Positions 10,967 through 22,780 of a stretch of DNA of 32,000 bases are shown here, piece by piece. The notes under the pieces are model-generated. The model saw only the letters and a list, made by a program, of their open reading frames with translations. It was not told the origin of the DNA and did no database searches. Location of the stretch: positions 1 to 32,000 of the forward strand of contig NZ_MPKA01000087.1 in the NCBI RefSeq assembly GCF_001945605.1, given 5' to 3'. How positions within the stretch are numbered: the stretch's first letter is position 1; every line of letters starts with the position of its first letter. A program made the position numbers and the translations under genes. The DNA is from Dubosiella newyorkensis (GTDB lineage Bacteria; Bacillota_I; Bacilli_A; Erysipelotrichales; Erysipelotrichaceae).

Positions 10967-13441
10967 ATGGCCTACGGAAATTGGCATGGCGCTGTATGGC
11001 GCAATGTTTGGGCCAGCGCCTACTACTCGATCGATGTGCAGTGGGACTACTGTCAAGATATTGAGGCAAATAAAACAAAGATCTCGATGATGGCGATCCG
11101 TCTCCATCGTCTGAACAGCGCTTACTATTTCTACAATGCTTACGGCAAGGTAGGGATCGGAGACTTTAATGGTGGCAAGTTTGAGTCGACAGTATCAATG
11201 GACGTCAGAAATACGACGCTTCAAACTTTTGCCCTGACAAACCGGCACAGCGAAGTCGAGCACAATCCTGACGGATCGTGGCCAACGGGCAAAAAATGGG
11301 GTCAATGGATGTTCAAGGCAGGCATCAATGGATACAACACGCCAGAGGTGGGATGGACAGTATTCAATATTGATGGATCGATCCCTAAGATCCCTAGAGC
11401 AACCGTTCCAACAGTGAGCGCAGAAAGCATCAATATGGGATCTGAGGTCACGATCAACCTCCCAAAAGCAACCAGCAGTTTCACACACGATATTTTTTAC
11501 AAATATTCCAGCGATTCCAGTTATACAACTCTTGCAACTGGTGTAACTGGGACATCACAAAAATGGACGCCGCCAGTATCTTTAGCAAGCAAGATACCAA
11601 GTGCAACAAGCGGAACATGGAATATTTTGGTAAGAACAAAGTCCGGCAGCACGATCATAGGCGATAAGAGCATCAATATAACGCTCAGCGTCCCATCAAA
11701 CATTGTGCCGAGCATCTCATCTGTGGCCGTAGCTGAAGCAACGGCCGGGATCGCAGCACAATTCGCCGCCTATATACAAGGCAGGTCGACTTTTAAAGTG
11801 ACGGTGGCCGCAGCCGGAAACCAGGGAAGCACGATCAAAAGCTATTCGGTAAAAGCGGATGGCAAAACATACTCAAGGGATAGTAACGTCTTTACAACAC
11901 AGACCATTAACGGTTCTGGAAATTTGAACGTCGTTGCTACTGTTACCGACTCACGGGGGCGAACGGCATCGAAAACAGTAACGGTCGCTGTGTCTGCTTA
12001 TTCATCGCCATCTGTCACGACCTTCAAAGCCGTACGGTGTACAAGTGCAGGCGTGGAAAACGAAGAAGGAACAGCAGTCAAGATTTTGTTTAATTTCTCG
12101 ATCGCTGCAATGGGGAACAAAAACACACGATCTTTTAAAATCCAACAGCTTAATGGCAACACATGGACCGACATTCACACGATCACGGATTCGTATAGTA
12201 CGAATTCAAGCATCATCAAAACCGGTCCTTTTTCTGTGGACAGCAAATTCAGCTTCCGGGCTGTTGCGGCGGACTTTTTCACGAGCGCTACGGTGTACTC
12301 AGATGTATCGCCGTCTTTTGCGTTGATCAATTTCGGGGCAGGCGGTAAATCTTTAGCGTTTGGTGGAGTGAGCTCGAATGATGGATCATTTGAGTCGTAT
12401 ATGGCCACAAAAGTTTACAACAAATTTCAGGTTCCTATTGCCAAAGACTTAACTGATAATGGCGTACCTTTTGCGGGAGCTGGACCGGGATTAACCGACC
12501 TGACTCAATTATCGAATTATCGTAGCTTTATCGGAGCACTCGCTTTAAACGGCGTGTGGAATAATGTTTTGAGTATACGGCACAGAAATGGATATTCTGA
12601 TGGAAGCAATTACGGAATGTATATCCGAAGCGCCTTAACATCGAGCGGTTCCTTATTTTATCGCCAACAATATAGCGGTAATTGGGCGAGCGAAAGGATG
12701 ATTGTTGATAGCTGGAATTATCCAGAAGCAACCAAGCGTTATCACTATCGTTTTTATTGTCCTTCGGGAGGTGGCGCAAGATGGGTCCATATCGGCGATT
12801 TCCCATCAAATACCGGAGGGACAACACATGCGATTACGATTTATACCGGCAATGGGTTTAATGGTCGCTCAGATCAAAACAGTGAAATAGAAATTAGAAT
12901 CAAGCCTGCAGCCGAAAACTATGGGACTACTTTTTGGGTTAATGGGTATTATCATAATTCGATCCAAGTTAAAGTCTATACTCAGTCTACATCAACACCT
13001 TGCCAGCTTTGGGTATATTTCCCGTGGGCATGGTATTCTGGAAGCGTAGAGGTATATACAGAAGGAAGTTTTAACTTTAGTGGTGCCAATCAAACCGGAA
13101 CACCAGCGCAGCCAGCGAATACAGCAAACGCCCCAGTGGCGAATATAACCCCTGACATGCGAGGCTATCCAATCGGATCAGTTTTCGAATGCACTGCAGC
13201 TAGTATTTCGAACCCCGCAAATGTGATGGGTGGAACGTGGCAAGAAATTCGTGCTGTGTTTGCGAATATTAATAATTCGAATCAGGTTATTGATGTGGCG
13301 GGCGGCGCAACTGCTAATGGTACGAATATTGATTTATATGTTTTCAACGGATCGAATGCACAAAAGTTTTTGATACAAGGTTCGCCGGCTGGACAAAATA
13401 CAGCTCGACATGATCTTCGTATGTGGATTCGAACACAGTAA
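10967..13441 (+). CDS. DUF859-like siphovirus structural protein (putative baseplate/receptor-binding protein) with a C-terminal ricin-B-like lectin motif
   Basis: GAGGTG lies 7 nt upstream of the ATG. The N-terminus WRNVWASAYYSIDVQWDYCQDIEANKTKI..., IPKIPRATVPT and SSFTHDIFYKY match my recollection of the DUF859 family. The C-terminal QVIDVAGGATANGTNIDLYVFNGSNAQKFLIQ resembles a single ricin-type QxW subdomain. Confidence 0.7.
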   Translation: MAYGNWHGAVWRNVWASAYYSIDVQWDYCQDIEANKTKISMMAIRLHRLNSAYYFYNAYGKVGIGDFNGGKFESTVSMDVRNTTLQTFALTNRHSEVEHNPDGSWPTGKKWGQWMFKAGINGYNTPEVGWTVFNIDGSIPKIPRATVPTVSAESINMGSEVTINLPKATSSFTHDIFYKYSSDSSYTTLATGVTGTSQKWTPPVSLASKIPSATSGTWNILVRTKSGSTIIGDKSINITLSVPSNIVPSISSVAVAEATAGIAAQFAAYIQGRSTFKVTVAAAGNQGSTIKSYSVKADGKTYSRDSNVFTTQTINGSGNLNVVATVTDSRGRTASKTVTVAVSAYSSPSVTTFKAVRCTSAGVENEEGTAVKILFNFSIAAMGNKNTRSFKIQQLNGNTWTDIHTITDSYSTNSSIIKTGPFSVDSKFSFRAVAADFFTSATVYSDVSPSFALINFGAGGKSLAFGGVSSNDGSFESYMATKVYNKFQVPIAKDLTDNGVPFAGAGPGLTDLTQLSNYRSFIGALALNGVWNNVLSIRHRNGYSDGSNYGMYIRSALTSSGSLFYRQQYSGNWASERMIVDSWNYPEATKRYHYRFYCPSGGGARWVHIGDFPSNTGGTTHAITIYTGNGFNGRSDQNSEIEIRIKPAAENYGTTFWVNGYYHNSIQVKVYTQSTSTPCQLWVYFPWAWYSGSVEVYTEGSFNFSGANQTGTPAQPANTANAPVANITPDMRGYPIGSVFECTAASISNPANVMGGTWQEIRAVFANINNSNQVIDVAGGATANGTNIDLYVFNGSNAQKFLIQGSPAGQNTARHDLRMWIRTQ

Positions 13442-13516: not shown

Positions 13517-13690
13517 ATGAAACAAAGAGAGCTTATAAAGAGGCTAGGAAAACTTGGATTCCATTTTGAAAGACATGGCGCGAACCATGACATTTACACA
13601 GATGGAAAAACAAAAATTCCCATTCCAAGACACAAAGAAATAAAAGAAGCCTTAGCAAAAGCCATTATCGAACAAGCGGAGCTCAAATGA
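13517..13690 (+). CDS. hicA: HicA-family mRNA interferase toxin
   Basis: 57 aa: MKQRELIKRLGKLGFHFERHGANHDIYTDGKTKIPIPRHKEIKEALAKAIIEQAELK. It has the typical HicA length and the pattern L-K-LxKxGF...HG-NH.....IP-H.K..........I..Q. Strong SD AAGGAGG. It is below the ORF-track size cutoff. Confidence 0.8.
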   Translation: MKQRELIKRLGKLGFHFERHGANHDIYTDGKTKIPIPRHKEIKEALAKAIIEQAELK

Positions 13691-13728: not shown

Positions 13729-14106
13729 ATGAAAAAATTAGTATATCCGGCTGAATTTGTAAAGCAAGATGACGGATCTTATTTGGTGTTTTTTGTCGAT
13801 ATTCCCCAATGTATGACAGAAGGAAAAGATTTACCAAACGCGCTTTATATGGCTGAAGATTGCCTGAAAACATGGGCACAAGCAATGGTTGATGATGGAC
13901 TTTCATTACCAACAGCAACCAGCGGAGAAAACGCGAAACCAACAAAAGGGGGCTTTATTAGTCTAGCAACCGCAGAATTAAAAGACTCTAAGCCGGTGAT
14001 CAAATCAGTTAGCCTTCCTCATTGGATGGCTGACGAAGCAGCAAAAGCACATCTAAGTTTATCTGGCGTATTGCAAGAAGCACTTTCTCAAAAATTAAGT
14101 ATGTAG
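13729..14106 (+). CDS. hicB: HicB-family antitoxin with a C-terminal ribbon-helix-helix
   Basis: 125 aa. The N-terminus YPAEFVKQDDGSYLVFFVDIPQCMTEGKDLPNALYMAEDCL is the HicB RNase-H-like fold signature. The C-terminal VSLPHWMADEAAKAHLSLSGVLQEALSQKL is CopG/RHH-like. It sits immediately downstream of hicA. Confidence 0.8.
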   Translation: MKKLVYPAEFVKQDDGSYLVFFVDIPQCMTEGKDLPNALYMAEDCLKTWAQAMVDDGLSLPTATSGENAKPTKGGFISLATAELKDSKPVIKSVSLPHWMADEAAKAHLSLSGVLQEALSQKLSM

Positions 14107-14778: not shown

Positions 14779-15066
14779 ATGGAATTTCTACAATCTTATT
14801 TCAATCTTTTAATTGTTGGGTGCTGCGTTGTGATTGGGTATGTATGGACGACGTTCACGCCGGAGAACGATTTGAGCCGACGGTATATCCCTGTAGTGAT
14901 GGCCGTACTTGGAACGATCCTGGCATGTATTGATGCACGAGGCGTGAGCCTTGAAATTATCCTTTCTGGATCGGTGAGCGGCCTGGCGTCTACCGGATGT
15001 TATGAGGCATTTAAGCAGTTAATTCTTAAGCCTAAGTGGATTGAAGACAAAGCAGAGGAAAGGTAA
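14779..15066 (+). CDS. Phage holin
   Basis: 95 aa with two or three TM segments and a charged C-terminus (KWIEDKAEER). YIPVVMAVLGTIL...SGSVSGLASTGCYEAFKQLI matches my recollection of the Hol44/phage_holin_5 type. It lies upstream of the endolysin. Confidence 0.75.
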   Translation: MEFLQSYFNLLIVGCCVVIGYVWTTFTPENDLSRRYIPVVMAVLGTILACIDARGVSLEIILSGSVSGLASTGCYEAFKQLILKPKWIEDKAEER

Positions 15067-15489
15067 ATGGAAGAGGTAATCAGTGCGTATGGCTTACCGA
15101 CTTTGATTGCGATTGGAAGCGCTCTTGTGGGCGCTTTTTTCTCGTATCGCGAATTTCGAAAAAAAGCGTATGATCATGCAAAAGAAATGATTGATCTATC
15201 ACCAGAAACAGCAAAGGCAGAAAGGGATCATATCCGCAAGGATGTCGATGATCTGAAAGATGAAGTTAGCGCAATCCGAGAAAGTGTAGATAGCCTTGTG
15301 AAATCCGACTTAGCCAATCGGATGCTCAAGCTCGCTGATAAAGCACAGTACTATAAACATCTTGAATACTGTCCCATCGAAATGAAAGGCTTGCTCAAGT
15401 CTGAATTTGATCGATATTTTGATGAAGGCGGAAATCATATCACCCGGGATCTTTTAAAAGAAGTCCTGGCGTTACCAAATGAGAAATAG
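15067..15489 (+). CDS. Membrane-anchored coiled-coil protein of unknown function in the lysis cassette
   Basis: ATG directly abuts the holin stop. 140 aa with one N-terminal TM (LPTLIAIGSALVGAFF), an acidic coiled-coil, and a C-terminal region I do not recognise. Confidence 0.6.
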   Translation: MEEVISAYGLPTLIAIGSALVGAFFSYREFRKKAYDHAKEMIDLSPETAKAERDHIRKDVDDLKDEVSAIRESVDSLVKSDLANRMLKLADKAQYYKHLEYCPIEMKGLLKSEFDRYFDEGGNHITRDLLKEVLALPNEK

Positions 15490-15500
15490 GAGGAAATAAT

Positions 15501-16508
15501 ATGGCAAACTCAAATTTAGCAACTTATCGAAACCCGACCCGGAATCATTCCGGAGGGCGAACGCAAAAAATATCAAAAATTACACCGCACGAAATGGCGG
15601 CAATCTGGAGTGGCCGGCAGTGTGCTGACTACTTTGCCGGAACGACACGCCAAGCATCAAGCAATTACTGTATCGGAAATGGCGGCGACATTGCAATCAG
15701 TGTGGACGAAGGAAATCGCGCTTGGACAAGCTCCAGCGAGTACAATGATCAGCGTGCGGTGACGATCGAAGTATCGAATTCCGTGTGCGGTGGCGACTGG
15801 CCAGTCAGCCCAGCCGCTTACAATGCTCTTGTGCGTCTTTGCGCTGACATCTGCAAGCGGAATGGAATCAACCCGGCCTATAATGGCGCAGCAAGTGGCA
15901 GTATCACAATGCACAAAATGTTTGCATCCACGGCTTGTCCAGGGCCTTATCTGACTCATAAAATCGTGTCTGGAGATCTTGCAAGAGACATCAAAGCCGC
16001 AATGGGTCAAGGGACTGCAAAGCCAGTATCTCAACAGCTTTATCGCATCCGCAAATCATGGGCTGATGTTAAGTCGCAGATCGGCGCTTATAAGTCACTC
16101 GAAAACGCTAAAAAAGCCTGTGGTGTTGGTTACTCTGTATTTGATAAGGACGGTAAGGCTGTCTACACTCCAGGAGGATCCGCAGCTAAAAAGTGGACAC
16201 AGGACTGCGTGCTAAAAGTTGGCGATAAGGTCATTTCTGTGTCGTGTGGCATTGTAGCTGTACCGGGTACTAACTCAGCAGTGCAAGGCAACTTGGTCAA
16301 TATTCCAGCTCTAGGAGGGATGGTCCCGCTATCCGACGTTTCAGAAGCCGATGATACAGGCGACGGCAAAAAGGATGACTATCTGGCCAACACTAAATCC
16401 AGAGTATTTTTGCTGCAAGCGACTGTGACTAAGATCATCAGCAATGATCTTGTTCAACTTGACCGCGGATATGTGGTAAAAACTGGTCCTTTGATGGGAC
16501 TAAGATAG
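15501..16508 (+). CDS. Endolysin: N-acetylmuramoyl-L-alanine amidase (Amidase_2/PGRP type) with a C-terminal cell-wall-binding region
   Basis: AGGAGG SD. ASSNYCIG..GDIAISVDEGNRAWTSSS.YNDQRAVTIEVSN...ITMHKMFASTACPGPYL is the Amidase_2 signature. The C-terminus has a SPOR-like YRIRKSWADVKSQIGAYKSLENAKKA segment and an SH3-like segment. Confidence 0.85.
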   Translation: MANSNLATYRNPTRNHSGGRTQKISKITPHEMAAIWSGRQCADYFAGTTRQASSNYCIGNGGDIAISVDEGNRAWTSSSEYNDQRAVTIEVSNSVCGGDWPVSPAAYNALVRLCADICKRNGINPAYNGAASGSITMHKMFASTACPGPYLTHKIVSGDLARDIKAAMGQGTAKPVSQQLYRIRKSWADVKSQIGAYKSLENAKKACGVGYSVFDKDGKAVYTPGGSAAKKWTQDCVLKVGDKVISVSCGIVAVPGTNSAVQGNLVNIPALGGMVPLSDVSEADDTGDGKKDDYLANTKSRVFLLQATVTKIISNDLVQLDRGYVVKTGPLMGLR

Positions 16509-16512
16509 ACAA

Positions 16513-16533
16513 AGCTCCCGAAAGGGGGCTTTT
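16513..16533 (+). terminator. Intrinsic terminator after the endolysin
   Basis: AGCTCCC-GAAA-GGGGGCT followed by TTT(A)ATTTT. It is weaker on the minus strand, where a C.A mismatch forms. Confidence 0.65.
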
Positions 16534-16544
16534 AATTTTGGCCT

Positions 16545-16630
16545 AAAAAAAAGCCCCCTTCTGGCTGGGAAGGAGGAAGATAATGAAACCTGATATTTTC
16601 GAAGCTGTTTTCAGGCTTATCGAGATCTCT
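16545..16630 (-). ncRNA. Predicted cis-antisense RNA of about 85 nt covering the SD, start codon and first ~16 codons of the peptide ORF
   Basis: Minus-strand promoter: TTGTAA (16665-16660), 17-nt spacer ending in TGT, then TATAAT (16642-16637), i.e. an extended -10. Minus-strand terminator: CCTCCTTC-ccagcca-GAAGGGGG followed by C and T8 (16576-16545). This is a prediction only. Confidence 0.3.
16554..16576 (+). promoter_or_regulatory. SD-sequestering hairpin in the leader of the small peptide ORF
   Basis: CCCCCTTC (16554-16561) pairs with GAAGGAGG (16569-16576) at 7 of 8 positions, with one C.A mismatch. The second arm contains the GGAGG SD of the 16583 ORF. Confidence 0.4.
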
Positions 16631-16678
16631 ATTGCTATTATAACAGTTGCGATAGAGATTTACAAATTGAAGAGATAA
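16583..16678 (+). CDS. 31-aa hydrophobic/amphipathic peptide; candidate type I toxin or holin-like toxin peptide
   Basis: GGAGG (16572-16576), 6-nt spacer, then ATG. Sequence MKPDIFEAVFRLIEISIAIITVAIEIYKLKR, with a basic C-terminus. It has its own terminator 10 nt downstream. It is too short for the ORF track. Confidence 0.4.
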   Translation: MKPDIFEAVFRLIEISIAIITVAIEIYKLKR

Positions 16679-16688
16679 GAGTGATTGC

Positions 16689-16711
16689 GAGGTCTTCGGA
16701 CCTCTTTTTTT
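16689..16711 (+). terminator. Intrinsic terminator of the small peptide ORF
   Basis: GAGGTC-TTCG-GACCTC followed by T7. Confidence 0.8.
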
Positions 16712-16869
16712 ATGTTTCGTGAGGAATATATGAGGAAAAAAGAGAGAAATGTTCACGAAAAAAAACAAAATAAGTGGTTTTAAGCAATCTAATATCATAA
16801 TCAGTAAACAAAAGTAAGTTGTAGCACAATATATGGAGTTTCCCGTCATCTGCTCCATCTAGTTGAGTT

Positions 16870-16894
16870 AAAAACCGCAGAAATGCGGTTTTTT
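16870..16894. terminator. Bidirectional intrinsic terminator with no obvious gene attached
   Basis: AAAAACCGCA-GAAA-TGCGGTTTTTT, with an A-run on one side and a T-run on the other. Confidence 0.6.
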
Positions 16895-16943
16895 GCTATT
16901 TGGAAGTTTTAGAATTCATAAATTAAAAATTTTATTTTTTCTC

Positions 16944-16972
16944 TTTACAAACACTCAATTATTCGATATTAT
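16944..16972 (+). promoter_or_regulatory. Sigma-A-type promoter for tRNA-His
   Basis: TTTACA (16944-16949), 17-nt spacer, TATTAT (16967-16972). An AT-rich UP-like region lies upstream, and the tRNA starts 13 nt after the -10. Confidence 0.5.
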
Positions 16973-16984
16973 AATTGAGCATAT

Positions 16985-17061
16985 GGCGGTTGTGGTGAAG
17001 TGGTTAACACAACGGATTGTGGCTCCGTCATTCGCGCGTTCGATCCGCGTCAGCCGCCCCA
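16985..17061 (+). tRNA. tRNA-His (anticodon GTG) with the extra G-1 and an encoded CCA
   Basis: Hand-folded cloverleaf. Acceptor GCGGTTG/CAGCCGC, with G-1 opposite C73. Anticodon arm ACGGA-TTGTGGC-TCCGT. T arm GCGCG-TTCGATC-CGCGT. It closely resembles Bacillus tRNA-His. Confidence 0.95.
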
Positions 17062-17076
17062 TTTTGTAAGCAAACG

Positions 17077-17104
17077 TGCCAATCGAAAGATTGGCATTTT
17101 TTTT
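17077..17104 (+). terminator. Intrinsic terminator after tRNA-His
   Basis: TGCCAATC-GAAA-GATTGGCA followed by T8. Confidence 0.8.
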
Positions 17105-17123
17105 ATAAGAAAGGATCTAATTT

Positions 17124-17678
17124 ATGAAAAAACTCTTCATTCTTTGTGTGTTCCTTTTGGCTGGCTGCGCTACACAAACTCCATCAAAAACCCCATCCGC
17201 ATGCTCCGAAGAGCAAGCTTGTACGATCGGTGATCAAAACACTGTTGAAACGATGCAGCCATTGTCTTTTGAAGAGGCCCTTTCCTTTTTCAAAGAGAAA
17301 AAAAGCGGTCTATTGTATTTTGGCTTTGAAAATTGTCCATGGTGTCAAGAAGCGCTCCCGATCCTTCGAGAAGAAGCTAAACGACAAAACGTTTCGATCC
17401 ATTCGATCTTGACACGCGATGAAAATAATGAACTTCTTTATACGGAGGAACAAAAACAAGAAATCATTCCTTATCTTCAAGACTATATGTCCAAGAACGA
17501 GGAAGGTGAGCTCACGCTCTATGTGCCTCTTGTCGTTGTCGTCAAAGATGGAAAAGCGATCGAAGGTCATGTTGGAACGGTGGATGACCACGATGCCCAT
17601 GCGCGTAAAATGACGGAAGAAGAAAAACAAGAACTTCAAAAAAAATACGAAGATATGCTTGCGCAATTATCTTCGTAA
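17124..17678 (+). CDS. Thioredoxin-fold lipoprotein (CxxC)
   Basis: Signal peptide with lipobox LLAGC. The CPWC motif sits in the context LLYFGFENCPWCQEALP. 184 aa. Confidence 0.75.
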   Translation: MKKLFILCVFLLAGCATQTPSKTPSACSEEQACTIGDQNTVETMQPLSFEEALSFFKEKKSGLLYFGFENCPWCQEALPILREEAKRQNVSIHSILTRDENNELLYTEEQKQEIIPYLQDYMSKNEEGELTLYVPLVVVVKDGKAIEGHVGTVDDHDAHARKMTEEEKQELQKKYEDMLAQLSS

Positions 17679-17912
17679 TAAGACTTCTGCCCGAAATAAG
17701 TACCAGCCATTCAGCAAGAGAAGTGGTGTAAATAGATCATACCCCATACCTGAAATCAATTTTACGAACGGATGGGAAACAAGTGTAGGAAACAGGAAAG
17801 GGAATACCCACGATACCCAGATCGCGACCACAAAAAGGAAAAGATTCACAAGAAATAAGATCCGAGTCATCACTTTCGAAGTATGCAGATCCGTAAAAAT
17901 CAATTTAAACAT
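17667..17912 (-). CDS. Small integral membrane protein, 81 aa, unknown function
   Basis: Strong minus-strand SD AAGGAGGG lies 6 nt before ATG 17912. Two or three hydrophobic segments. Its 3' end overlaps the convergent lipoprotein gene by 12 nt. Confidence 0.5.
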   Translation of the reverse strand: MFKLIFTDLHTSKVMTRILFLVNLFLFVVAIWVSWVFPFLFPTLVSHPFVKLISGMGYDLFTPLLLLNGWYLFRAEVLLRR

Positions 17913-18042
17913 AGGGCTCCCTCCTTTTTCTATGATTATAAGAAATTCGATTCAAGAAGGGGACTCAGACACTCTTTGTGTGAAATTATGTGAATTAATA
18001 AAACGCGGCTCATTTTTGAGTAAGAATTCGTATTTATAAAGT

Positions 18043-19603: not shown

Positions 19604-20163
19604 AAAAAGCACAAATCATCGCGATCGGATTTATAGGACTCGGTCTATTGGATTCCTTGATCACATTCGCTTTTCCGATCGATTTTACCTATGTCCATTA
19701 CAGTTTCGTTCCGCACCTTGTTTTTATCGGAACCCTCGTGTATACCGTCGATAAACCTTGGCTCAATCGGATTTTGATCTCCATGGTCATCGGGCTTGGC
19801 TTCGATCTATTGTTTGCCCAGATGTTCCCGATGAATATGATCTTATTCGCTCTATTTGGCTACTTGGCAGGATGGATCTATGAACATATGCATCGAGAGG
19901 GAAGCCTATTCCTTATTTTTCTAGGCTGCGCCTTCCTCTACGACTTGATCCCATATATCATCTATTTTATGATCAACCACTCGCCAAGCCTTGATACATG
20001 GTTTTATAAAATCGAAAGCTTGACCCTTCTTGCCGATCTGATCAGCATTCTTTTCTTGATGTATATTCAGCAAGTCATGTCCCGGTTCTTTATGATCCGC
20101 CAATACCGCGAACGAAAGCAAACCACCAAAAAACTAAATCAAATCAAAACATCCCGGAAATGA
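19600..20163 (+). CDS. mreD: Rod shape-determining protein MreD
   Basis: ATGA overlap with mreC. 187-aa polytopic membrane protein in the conserved position. Confidence 0.7.
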   Translation: MKKAQIIAIGFIGLGLLDSLITFAFPIDFTYVHYSFVPHLVFIGTLVYTVDKPWLNRILISMVIGLGFDLLFAQMFPMNMILFALFGYLAGWIYEHMHREGSLFLIFLGCAFLYDLIPYIIYFMINHSPSLDTWFYKIESLTLLADLISILFLMYIQQVMSRFFMIRQYRERKQTTKKLNQIKTSRK

Positions 20164-20218
20164 GATCAGCCCTCGTTTTCGGGATTCGTGGTAAAATGGA
20201 AAAAACAAAGGAGCTTTT

Positions 20219-22780
20219 ATGAAAAAATTACTATTGATCGATGGCAATTCGATGCTGTTCCGCGCCTATTATGCCACCGCCTATACACGAAGAATGTCTA
20301 CAAGCACAGGCATCCCTACCAATGCGGTCTTCGGATTCATCTCCATGATGCAAAAAGCGATCCACCTGATCCATCCTGATGCGATCTTGGTGGCATGGGA
20401 CGCTGGAAAGAAAACGTTCAGACACGAAAGCTATGAAGACTATAAAGGAACACGAAAAGAATTGGACGAGGATCTGATCGTTCAGATGCCGATCGTGCGC
20501 GAATATCTCGATGAGATCCAGATCCCTCGATATGAAGAAGAAGGCTATGAAGCCGATGACATCATCGGATCGATGTGCGAAGAAAACCCGGACATTTCGA
20601 CCACTATTTTGACAAGCGACCGCGACCTTTTGCAACTCGTCGACAAAAGCACCAACGTATTGCTCATGAAAAAAGGAATCACGGAAATGGACCTCATGGA
20701 TGAAGCGGCGCTCCAGGAAAAATATGACCTCAAGCCTCGCCAGATCATCGACCTCAAAGGATTGATGGGCGACGCTTCCGATAATATCCCCGGCGTCAAA
20801 GGTGTTGGAGAAAAAACAGCCTTAAAACTACTCCATCAATACGAAAGCGTAGAAGGCGTTTATGAACATATCGACGAAATCAAAGGCAAAATGAGAGAAA
20901 AGCTGATCGATGGAAAAGAGTCCGCCTTCTTATCCAAAGAGCTCGCTACGATCTTTACAGAAATGAAGCTTCCATTCTCTCTCGATGATCTCACTTATCA
21001 TCACCATGAAGGAGAAAACTTCTATAAAAAATACGAAATGAAATCGCTTTTAGAACGCGAAAAAGTCGTTGAAGTCCCTAAGACGATCGAGACCCATACG
21101 ATCGATTCGATCGGGCAATTAAAAGAAATCCCAACCTTGATGATCCCTGTCGCAAGCGATGAGGCTTTCTTAGAACAAACGCTCTATGGCTTTATGTTTT
21201 GCGAAAACGAATCCGCTTACTATTTGCCGCTCAAGGATGCCAGCAATGACGAAGCCTTCATCCAATGGCTAAAAACGGTAAAGTTGACGACCTATCGGGC
21301 AAAAAATGCGATGCATCTTTTTGACCGCTACGGTTTTACGATCCCCCACATTCAAGACGATTTGCATCTAGCTGGCTTTTTATTGTATAGCCAAGCCACC
21401 AATATGGACGATTTGTTTGAAGCTTTAGAGATCCCGCTCCACGAACCATGGAAAGATCTATCCAAAAAAAGCTTAGGCGGTTTTTCCGAAGAAAGAATGA
21501 AACAAGAGATCGCTTCGATCATCGTTCCTTTGGCTCATAAAAAAAGCTCGATCCTCGCTTCGATCGAAGAAGAAAATATGAAAGAACTTTATTACGATGT
21601 CGAACTTCCGCTCAGCAAGATCTTGTACTCGATGGAAAACGAAGGAATCGACGTCGACGAAAACAAGCTCGAAGAAATACGACAAGACTACCAACAAAAA
21701 ATGGATGCGCTTCTCGAAACGATCTACAGCTTTGCTGGCCATGAATTCAATGTCGACTCGCCAAAGCAGCTCGCGGTTGTCTTGTTTGATGAACTCAAAT
21801 TGAAGACAGGAAAGAAACGCTCCACAGCCGCGGATATCTTAGAAAAACTAAAAGAAGATCATCCGATCATCGATCAGATCCTCGAATATAAAAAGTATTC
21901 AAAAATCATGTCGACCTATATTATCGGCCTGAAAAAATATATTCATAACGGAAAGATCTTCACGACCTTCAATCAAACCGTGACAGCGACAGGACGTTTG
22001 TCATCATCCGATCCAAATTTGCAGAACATATCGATCAAAGACGAAGAAGGAAAAGAAATCCGCAAAGCATTCGTTGCACCCAAAGGATATAAACTCATCT
22101 CCGCCGACTATTCCCAGATCGAATTGAGAATGCTCGCCCACATGGCGAATGAATACAATATGATCGACGCCTTCAAGCACGATATCGACATCCATACAAA
22201 AACAGCGTCTGAACTCTTTGACGTCTCGCCTGATGAAGTCGACGAACACGAGCGACGGATCGCAAAAACGGTGAATTTCGGTATCATCTATGGCCAAACA
22301 GAATTTGGACTCTCTCAAACGTTGCATATCAGCCGTCAAGAAGCGAAAAAATTCATGCGCACCTATTTTGCATCGTATCCAAACATCCATCGTTTTATGG
22401 ACCAAACGATCGAGTTCTGCGAAGAGAACGGTTATGTAGAAACGATGCTGCATCGTCGCCGCGCCATCCCTGAAATCCATGACAAAAACTTTATGACCAA
22501 AGAGTTCGGTAAACGGGCGGCGATGAACGCTCCGATCCAAGGAAGCGCCGCCGACCTGATCAAGATCGCCATGATCAAAACGTATGAGGCGATCAATTCT
22601 CTAGGTTATGATACAAAAATGCTTTTGCAGATCCACGATGAACTCATCTTTGTCGCCCCCGATCATGAAGTGGAAGAAATCATCGCTCTCGTTCAAAAGA
22701 CGATGGATGAAGCGATGCAGCTCAACGTGCCATTAAAAGCCGGGATCTCGTATGGCCAAAATTGGTATGAGGCCAAATAA
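20219..22780 (+). CDS. polA: DNA polymerase I
   Basis: 853 aa. 5'-nuclease N-terminus LLLIDGNSMLFRAYYA. Polymerase motifs DYSQIELR, RRIAKTVNFGIIYG and QIHDEL. Confidence 0.97.
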   Translation: MKKLLLIDGNSMLFRAYYATAYTRRMSTSTGIPTNAVFGFISMMQKAIHLIHPDAILVAWDAGKKTFRHESYEDYKGTRKELDEDLIVQMPIVREYLDEIQIPRYEEEGYEADDIIGSMCEENPDISTTILTSDRDLLQLVDKSTNVLLMKKGITEMDLMDEAALQEKYDLKPRQIIDLKGLMGDASDNIPGVKGVGEKTALKLLHQYESVEGVYEHIDEIKGKMREKLIDGKESAFLSKELATIFTEMKLPFSLDDLTYHHHEGENFYKKYEMKSLLEREKVVEVPKTIETHTIDSIGQLKEIPTLMIPVASDEAFLEQTLYGFMFCENESAYYLPLKDASNDEAFIQWLKTVKLTTYRAKNAMHLFDRYGFTIPHIQDDLHLAGFLLYSQATNMDDLFEALEIPLHEPWKDLSKKSLGGFSEERMKQEIASIIVPLAHKKSSILASIEEENMKELYYDVELPLSKILYSMENEGIDVDENKLEEIRQDYQQKMDALLETIYSFAGHEFNVDSPKQLAVVLFDELKLKTGKKRSTAADILEKLKEDHPIIDQILEYKKYSKIMSTYIIGLKKYIHNGKIFTTFNQTVTATGRLSSSDPNLQNISIKDEEGKEIRKAFVAPKGYKLISADYSQIELRMLAHMANEYNMIDAFKHDIDIHTKTASELFDVSPDEVDEHERRIAKTVNFGIIYGQTEFGLSQTLHISRQEAKKFMRTYFASYPNIHRFMDQTIEFCEENGYVETMLHRRRAIPEIHDKNFMTKEFGKRAAMNAPIQGSAADLIKIAMIKTYEAINSLGYDTKMLLQIHDELIFVAPDHEVEEIIALVQKTMDEAMQLNVPLKAGISYGQNWYEAK

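Follow-up and report, generated by a model that had tools for sequence, protein, structure and literature searches.

A mobile cassette behind the endolysin gene of Dubosiella newyorkensis phages combines a small peptide gene with signals for a cis-antisense RNA

The stretch of Dubosiella newyorkensis DNA considered here (contig NZ_MPKA01000087.1; 32,000 nt, referred to below as the window, whose numbering is used throughout) includes the right-hand end of a prophage, with its lysis module of a holin, a 140-aa protein and an Amidase_2 endolysin. An open reading frame (ORF) of 31 codons, designated ORF31, follows this module directly, together with regulatory signals on both strands (Table 1). 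An earlier note on this DNA had interpreted the arrangement as a type I toxin-antitoxin (TA)-like locus, in which a small membrane-type peptide is paired with an overlapping antisense RNA. From a reading of the sequence between 16500 and 16720, a consensus scan for promoters and terminators, and a comparison with related phage loci, we can confirm a real, conserved and mobile cassette of ~205 bp, made up of the endolysin terminator, an antisense terminator, ORF31 with its Shine-Dalgarno (SD) sequence and a further terminator, in which a small peptide gene is combined with predicted signals for a cis-antisense RNA. The further step of identifying the locus as a type I TA-like peptide/cis-antisense module has, in our judgement, about an even chance of being correct.

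The 31-codon frame and the GGAGG motif 6 nt ahead of its ATG, both described in the earlier note, are read directly in the sequence, and the other signals that it had listed were returned independently by the scan, including T3, the terminator of the peptide transcript. On the minus strand these are a promoter-like site within ORF31, P_as, with an extended −10 TG, and an intrinsic terminator, T2, whose 5′ arm is the complement of the SD and which therefore doubles as an anti-SD stem. Together, P_as and T2 predict an antisense RNA with a start at ~16630, 7 nt past the −10, and a 3′ end in the U-run of T2. At ~84 nt, compared with the ~85 nt proposed earlier, it would be complementary to the 5′ leader, the SD, the start codon and codons 1–16 of ORF31. 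No ORF with an SD is found on this predicted transcript.

Table 1. Features of the cassette and its surroundings in the window, with the identity between the two natural alleles of the cassette where it was determined
Feature	Position	Strand	Description	Allele A versus allele B
DUF859 tail protein	10967-13441			
HicA toxin	13517-13690		type II TA	
HicB-like antitoxin	13729-14106		type II TA	
Holin	14779-15066		Phage_holin_5_2 / phrog_1129	
140-aa protein	15067-15489		between holin and endolysin	
Endolysin gene	15501-16508	+	335 aa, Amidase_2 (PF01510)	
Cassette	16506-16711		~205 bp	
T1, endolysin terminator	16511-16539 (scan 16511-16532)	+	9-bp stem, GAAA loop, UUUUAAUUUU	0.88
T2, intrinsic terminator	16545-16576 (scan 16576-16554)	-	CCTCCTTC-CCAGCCA-GAAGGGGG, then C + U8	0.97 (32/33 positions); single change in loop
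Predicted cis-antisense RNA	16546-16630	-	~84 nt, expected from P_as and T2	
Shine-Dalgarno GGAGG	16572-16576	+	6 nt 5′ of ATG	
ORF31	16583-16678	+	31 codons, encodes MKPDIFEAVFRLIEISIAIITVAIEIYKLKR	
Codons 1-13 of ORF31				0.44 (DNA)
Internal ORF31 hairpin	16623-16661	+ (RNA)	13-bp stem	
P_as, antisense promoter-like site	16665-16637	-	TTGTAA-17-TATAAT, 10/12 match, extended -10 TG	
P_as -35, TTGTAA	16665-16660	-	followed by 17-nt spacer	6/6
P_as TG	16645-16644	-		
P_as -10, TATAAT	16642-16637	-		8/9 (-10 + TGn); only 'n' changed
T3, terminator of peptide transcript	16689-16711 (scan 16689-16704 + T7)	+	GAGGTC-UUCG-GACCTC + U7	0.87; compensatory U-A to C-G at 16693/16700
Spacers				0.33-0.60
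attR core	16840-16857	+	18 nt identical to 3′ end of tRNA-Gly(GCC); host DNA beyond	
tRNA-His	16986-17061		host DNA	
81-aa hydrophobic ORF	17667-17912	-	GGAGG SD	

The quality of these signals varies. T1, the endolysin terminator, and T3 fold far more stably than shuffled sequences (−14.3 kcal/mol, z −4.5 and −10.1 kcal/mol, z −3.9, respectively). The T2 hairpin (−11.1 kcal/mol on the minus strand; 9-bp stem in the relative L026) has a stability that is ordinary for its G/C-rich composition (z −0.8), and on the plus strand the same bases form a bulged hairpin of −10.5 kcal/mol that is able to sequester the SD; given these two energies, the proposal that the hairpin clearly favours the minus strand was dropped. 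Terminator-like sites are concentrated in this region, with six seen between 16300 and 17200 and 1.0 expected. P_as is the sole site with a match of at least 10/12 and the TGn extension on either strand of the whole window (64 kb of strand sequence), for which Markov-shuffled sequence gives a chance level of 0.48 such sites; the expectation per 130 nt of one strand is ~0.001, or 0.014 if the TG is not required. With regard to the SD, the window has 13 other frames of 20 aa or longer with a GGAGG and a start, and 10 of them are real long genes.

A further hairpin lies within ORF31 itself (−16.5 kcal/mol, z −5.0 on the plus strand; −9.6 kcal/mol on the minus strand). The antisense −10 falls within its loop, and its 3′ arm abuts the −35. 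The hairpin might contribute to mRNA stability, cause a pause in translation or bind a protein. A role for this inverted repeat as a recurring operator was ruled out, there being no further paired copies in the window or the phage loci. A 108-aa minus-strand ORF at 16532–16858 was likewise set aside as spurious because it crosses the phage/host junction.

The earlier note had placed the locus at a prophage terminus, and the position of that terminus can now be given. In contigs from the same species that lack the prophage, similarity to the window begins only at 16840, at the 18-nt tRNA-Gly(GCC) core of attR, and ORF31 is therefore phage DNA, ~160 bp inside the right end. Exact-sequence look-ups place its peptide (allele A, including a D4E variant) on ~30 contigs, with an R11G variant in GCA_041448535.1. 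In alignments, the allele A block, from the last codons of the endolysin gene to the T-run of T3, is 97–100% identical while both flanks differ. The cassette directly follows at least five different endolysin genes and precedes at least four different downstream contexts, and the distance from the stop codon in the endolysin position to the cassette ORF is fixed at 74–76 nt. For allele A, the gene upstream encodes either a 335-aa Amidase_2 endolysin whose C-domain is ~73% identical (L026/L027) or a 250-aa endolysin of another type (L031/L033/L034), and downstream lie attR and host DNA, a plus-strand 367-aa integrase or a minus-strand 373-aa integrase. The left edge of the block lies inside the endolysin gene: identity to L026/L027 rises from ~73% to ~100% at about 16447, similarity to the loci with the 250-aa endolysin begins at 16467, and the last ~10–20 codons of the gene move together with the cassette as part of one block. 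T3 forms the right boundary, the contexts being unalignable right after its T-run. In L027, the minus-strand integrase has its own terminators ahead of the cassette, which rules out T2 as an integrase terminator; T2 would therefore serve a transcript that starts inside the cassette.

Carriage is not universal. The phage of L035 has a related endolysin C-terminus and lacks the cassette, and both L035 and L036, two looked-up contigs, have other small genes in its place. One of these, a hydrophobic ORF of 43 aa in the post-endolysin region (L035 1789–1920), ends in a Lys-rich tail, MQELKVLASGLSIIAIVLSVYNISRLINPPALKGAKHAKKKRK. Searches with the endolysin C-domain returned homologues that for the most part match a CW_7-like linker. 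Searches for synteny via the endolysin gave four loci in IMG/VR, the one examined downstream (L022) being without the cassette, and nothing in genome contigs. All carriers of the cassette that were found are phages of a single mouse-gut species, D. newyorkensis.

A second, diverged form of the cassette, allele B, was found in JGI metagenomes and IMG/VR with a pattern made up of the T2 stem, the SD and ATG, and occurs in 35 blocks of the assembly collection. A degenerate DNA pattern for the whole ORF gave 0 matches in the viral, genome and metagenome collections, being too strict because allele B has an indel, and further pattern scans returned chance matches only (L042–L054). The allele B peptide, MSENVELIFRTIEISIGIIALLIEIYKLKR, has 30 aa, is ~60% identical to that of allele A and differs by an in-frame codon deletion. 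Its ORF begins 76 nt past the stop of an ORF of 280, 233 or 202 aa in the endolysin position, the 280-aa product being an endolysin by PHROGs, and is followed by other small genes and then by one of several integrases or host genes. The phage modules that flank allele B are 93–98% identical to those of L026 and the cassette itself is only 81% identical; the split between the two alleles is therefore old in comparison with their present carrier phages. An 11/12 promoter, TTTACA-17-TATAAT, lies after the allele B cassette (L040 1749–2344, also L055–L063), as do three small ORFs of 43, 35 and 73 aa, of which the 35-aa ORF, MKNTINTIQIGLNIAMLVLLTAIMYLKYKEQKNGK, encodes another transmembrane (TM) peptide with a charged tail.

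The same scan recovers T1, T2, P_as (TTGTAA-17-TGcTATAAT) and T3 in allele B, and the SD is conserved there at 6–7 nt from the start. Within P_as, the hexamers, the TG and the 17-nt spacing are the same in both alleles, and 7 of the 17 spacer bases differ. Over the cassette as a whole, substitutions affect 4 of 85 signal positions versus 41 of 118 others (Fisher p = 1e-7), and within the ORF 0 of 14 promoter positions versus 30 of 76 others (p = 0.004), both statistics being post hoc, computed once the signals had been seen. Two of the four changes at signal positions form the compensatory pair in the T3 stem. The internal ORF31 hairpin is weaker in allele B (−11.5 kcal/mol, z −2.6) and has one C-G to G-C pair swap. 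The pattern of substitution is that which functional signals would predict, and recombination blocks would not be expected to produce it. Thus, the idea raised in the earlier note that peptide, antisense promoter and terminator might be conserved together in related phages holds: the cassette is kept as a unit, and its diverged allele retains all of the predicted signals.

ORF31 is probably translated. The SD, start and stop are kept between the alleles, and the indel that separates them is exactly one codon. Residues E7, F10, R11, E14, E25, K28, K30 and R31 are kept in both peptides, and the remaining changes are mostly hydrophobic-for-hydrophobic. The predicted product is a single helix (AF2, residues 5–30, pLDDT 94.8) with a narrow polar stripe (D4, E7, R11, E14, T21, E25, K28) and a basic C terminus, YKLKR, that is the same in both alleles. 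Its hydrophobicity would suffice for a membrane span (Kyte-Doolittle 19-residue maximum 2.05), and its helix is amphipathic, with a hydrophobic moment of 0.41 that was reached by 185 of 10000 shuffles. The ORF is missing from NCBI gene tables of the same locus, as the earlier note had anticipated, and is contained in Logan gene calls.

The suggestion in the same note that the peptide resembles Hol-Tox or other type I toxins is not borne out, as ORF31 has no profile match to Hol-Tox (PF16935), Fst/Ldr or other curated type I toxin families, nor to holin families in Pfam and PHROGs. The allele B peptide has no Pfam or PHROGs match. A phmmer search against 1.84 billion representatives returned the peptide's own cluster only, tblastn against phage and plasmid collections gave no peptide match, and blastn of the region against phages gave no match. 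At the RNA level, cmscan of 15500–18000 against Rfam at E<=10 gave only tRNA-His above threshold and nothing credible over 16545–16711.

The origin of the peptide mRNA is a separate matter. No sigma-70-like site with at least 9/12 matches and a 16–18-nt spacer is found upstream of ORF31 on the plus strand; the sole relaxed candidate, TAGACA-19-TTTAAT, was rejected, having a 19-nt spacer and being lost in allele B. Because T1 is part of the conserved block and ORF31 always follows an endolysin gene, the mRNA is probably made by late lysis transcription that reads through T1. Over 12 nt, the T1 3′ arm (16522–16533) is perfectly complementary to 16549–16560 (AAGGGGGCTTTT / AAAAGCCCCCTT), and this complementarity is kept in allele B. 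The segment 16549–16560 otherwise pairs with, and so masks, the SD. For the read-through leader, the minimum-energy structure contains T1 and a masked SD, and the centroid has the T1 3′ arm paired with 16549–16560. This difference is a hint that read-through transcripts could expose the SD via an alternative fold, although we offer this as speculation based on modelled structures.

Type I TA systems are defined by a small (<60 aa) hydrophobic TM protein with a charged C terminus, an overlapping antisense RNA gene and a promoter of the toxin's own (PMC6563280), and they are frequently located on prophages (PMC7699646). The peptide encoded by ORF31 has the size, the hydrophobic TM helix and the charged C terminus of such a toxin, and an antisense gene that overlaps it and has its own promoter and terminator is present at the level of sequence signals. 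The layout proposed in the earlier note, with a membrane-type peptide ORF and an antisense unit that has its promoter, terminator and anti-SD stem, has stood. A conserved promoter for the peptide gene, a point that the note does not raise, was not found.

The scheme that we infer from these signals supposes that both RNAs are transcribed, that the peptide is translated and has membrane activity or toxicity, and that its mRNA originates by read-through. In the lysogen, the antisense RNA would be made constitutively and would pair with any peptide transcript from its leader, through the SD and the start codon, to codon 16. The first contact may be made between the loops of the two hairpins at the SD, which are complementary, and pairing would both block ribosome binding and give a duplex open to cleavage by an RNase III-type enzyme. 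The peptide would be made only if late transcription outran the antisense RNA or if the antisense supply failed. In the former case, membrane damage by the peptide would help or time lysis; in the latter, the cell would be killed or arrested. The role that we consider most likely here is an aid to phage release, as is reported for the hokW-sokW system on E. coli O157 prophage Sp5, whose HokW is made on prophage induction (PMC8621323).

A number of observations weigh against a type I TA module. The lack of a conserved promoter for the peptide gene departs from the definition given above. Most Gram-positive type I toxins have a plain hydrophobic TM segment at the N terminus, which a helix with three Glu and one Arg does not resemble. 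The allele A peptide matches 0 families in Pfam, NCBIfam and PHROGs (E<=10) and in PADLOC (E<=1). The predicted antisense RNA has no match among the Rfam antitoxin and antisense families, and outside its terminator its fold is ordinary (z −0.9). Conservation must also be read with care. Apart from the post hoc nature of the statistics, the −35 of P_as falls within a 33-nt stretch that does not differ between the alleles and that also encodes the invariant C terminus, so that constraint on the protein could account for its conservation. Within allele A, the only two ORF substitutions, D4E and R11G, are both non-synonymous, and R11G removes a charge that both alleles otherwise conserve. The amidase N-domain is also ~98% identical within allele A, so that conservation there partly reflects recent mosaic recombination; because of this mosaic block structure, the conservation of allele A is uninformative on selection.

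The main rival to a type I TA system is a non-toxic peptide of the lysis module or of a lysogenic-conversion region, that is, a regulated accessory gene for a non-lethal small membrane protein, such as a holin modulator, a lysis-timing factor or a superinfection-exclusion peptide, whose expression is tuned by the antisense RNA. This would be in keeping with the position of the cassette, which is always the first element past an endolysin gene of any type, at its fixed distance from the stop, and with the inclusion of the endolysin terminator in the conserved block. Because the cassette ORF is without its own promoter, its expression is probably coupled to late transcription, and phages with related endolysins have other small genes or an integrase at this site, typical of an accessory-gene slot. 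However, silencing as tight as the anti-SD terminator, the SD-sequestering hairpin and the strong antisense promoter would suggest is usual for peptides that are harmful when expressed, and the size, helix and basic tail of the peptide are those listed for type I toxins (PMC6563280). On balance we consider an accessory gene of this kind possible, though doubtful. Unlikely, in our view, is a more elaborate proposal, in which ORF31 would be an antisense-gated fourth lysis gene: transcribed by read-through only, its SD freed by the 12-nt complementarity, silenced in lysogens by constitutive antisense RNA, acting both as a lysis accelerator or timer and as a lysogen addiction or abortive device, and moving glued to the last codons of the endolysin.

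The evidence on translation bears on a third alternative, according to which the locus encodes no peptide. It would instead be an RNA or terminator element, in which the endolysin transcript has a structured 3′ extension (SD-like hairpin, internal hairpin and T3) and is accompanied by a small RNA that acts in antisense or in trans. On this view, the ORF and the "SD" would be by-products of a purine-rich terminator stem. Several features do count against ORF31 being a protein-coding gene. GGAGG doubles as one arm of T2 and so would be present without any role in translation; the plus-strand hairpin in the ORF is highly stable and persists in part in allele B; no synonymous change separates the alleles in codons 14–31, a sign of constraint at the nucleotide level; and the two allele A substitutions are non-synonymous. 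Against these must be set the single-codon indel, the retention of start, stop and SD spacing, a stretch of DNA in codons 1–13 that is still open at so low an identity and keeps E7, F10, R11 and the hydrophobic pattern, and a product that is a confidently predicted amphipathic helix. We therefore regard an element without a peptide as distinctly improbable. Least probable of all is a peptide gene without a functional antisense RNA, in which the promoter match would come from Ile/Tyr/Lys codons (ATT ATA, TAC AAA) and T2 would be a mere insulator that stops leftward transcription into the lysis operon: both hexamers do lie in codons of residues conserved between the alleles, and 9/12 promoter-like matches are common in this AT-rich DNA (3 found versus 2.4 expected), but a match of the quality of P_as is unique in the window, its codon choice, TG and spacing are kept while spacer bases and the "n" have changed, and no leftward transcript needs T2, the right flank being a plus-strand tRNA cluster and the minus-strand integrase of L027 having terminators of its own.

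The surroundings of the cassette contain several further features. The 140-aa protein between holin and endolysin has relatives of 138–144 aa and an N-terminal hydrophobic stretch; it has no match in Pfam, its PHROGs matches are all of unknown function, and it may be a second lysis-membrane component. Further upstream, between the DUF859 tail protein and a CBM_5_12 protein, the prophage carries a type II TA pair, HicA and a HicB-like antitoxin. The pair is found in all related phage loci, and these phages may therefore carry two TA-like modules. The integration site of the prophage is the 3′ end of tRNA-Gly(GCC), one member of a tRNA-Ser/Asp/Gly/His cluster (L013 3469–3938); at the prophage-free site the tRNA-Gly gene lies at L013 3661–3734, and the window keeps only its 18-nt 3′ remnant at attR and the intact tRNA-His gene. 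The host flank encodes RadC, MreC and thioredoxin-like proteins. An 81-aa hydrophobic ORF in this flank, which is a gene call in all assemblies and has no Pfam match, is convergent with a 184-aa thioredoxin-like gene and overlaps its 3′ end by 12 nt. In other D. newyorkensis strains, an IS605-family OrfB/TnpB gene (Cas12f1-like_TNB) is inserted between mreD and polA (L013 7067–8238, L017–L019); the equivalent site in the window, ~20163–20219, is without the insertion.

Should the locus prove to be a type I TA-like module, it would be the first described for the Erysipelotrichaceae; full-text searches gave no report that links D. newyorkensis prophages or the Erysipelotrichaceae to type I toxins. 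Its toxin family would have no detectable relatives, and its coupling would be unusual, as the gene lacks its own promoter and is tied to one position at the endolysin terminator. In a Gram-positive gut commensal, membrane peptides under antisense control would thereby be connected with phage lysis. The reach of such a finding would be limited to the phages of one mouse-gut species, and type I TA systems on prophages are already well established. Nevertheless, a ~205-bp cassette with two natural alleles is a compact test case for cis-antisense control and terminator read-through, and it illustrates that genes of 30 aa at prophage ends escape reference annotation.

Comparison with known systems reveals likenesses of different kinds. 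In size and design, the peptide recalls TisB of the E. coli tisB/istR-1 system, a 29-aa single amphipathic helix with a few charges on one face and a basic C terminus, a resemblance that we treat only as a lead. ORF31 has no Pfam match of any kind. IstR-1 is not known to act as a full cis-antisense RNA across the SD, and TisB, under SOS regulation, is encoded on the chromosome and not by a phage. The bsrG/SR4, txpA/RatA and yonT/SR6 systems of Bacillus subtilis are closer in setting. They combine a small membrane peptide with an antisense RNA of ~100 nt on a prophage or prophage-like element, as is predicted for the ORF31 locus, and SR6 overlaps the 3′ end of yonT, unlike the predicted antisense RNA here. 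SR4 and RatA also overlap the 3′ ends of their toxin genes. The B. subtilis toxins have 38–59 aa and their own promoters, whereas ORF31 has 31 codons and no conserved promoter, and no Pfam or NCBIfam model matches ORF31.

The C. difficile prophage modules CD0977.1-RCd11 and CD0956.2-RCd10 have unannotated toxin ORFs of 34–53 aa with a TM helix and a basic tail; the toxins had no homology to those known at the time, and both RNAs were mapped experimentally (PMC7699646, PMC6563280). The ORF31 locus shares with them a Firmicutes prophage, an unannotated small TM peptide ORF and an overlapping (in our case predicted) antisense RNA. In C. difficile, however, the genes are convergent with a long complementary region, whereas the ORF31 antisense RNA, predicted from sequence alone, would cover the 5′ end and SD. 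The peptides also differ, the C. difficile toxins having a hydrophobic N terminus and a Lys-rich tail and ORF31 an amphipathic helix with three Glu and one Arg, and there is no sequence similarity between them.

The hok/sok systems differ from the ORF31 locus in sequence, there being no similarity and no match in a Pfam search that should include the Hok family, and in size and host, Hok having about 50 aa compared with the 31 aa of ORF31 in a member of the Gram-positive Erysipelotrichaceae. The hok gene has its own promoter, the overlapping mok reading frame and fold-back control by its 3′ end, and none of these traits is seen at ORF31. What the two would have in common is a small membrane peptide, a short cis-antisense RNA over the translation-initiation region and, in the case of hokW-sokW, carriage by a prophage. 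Of the known systems compared, hok/sok comes closest to the locus in its predicted layout, in which the antisense RNA would lie across the SD and the 5′ end.

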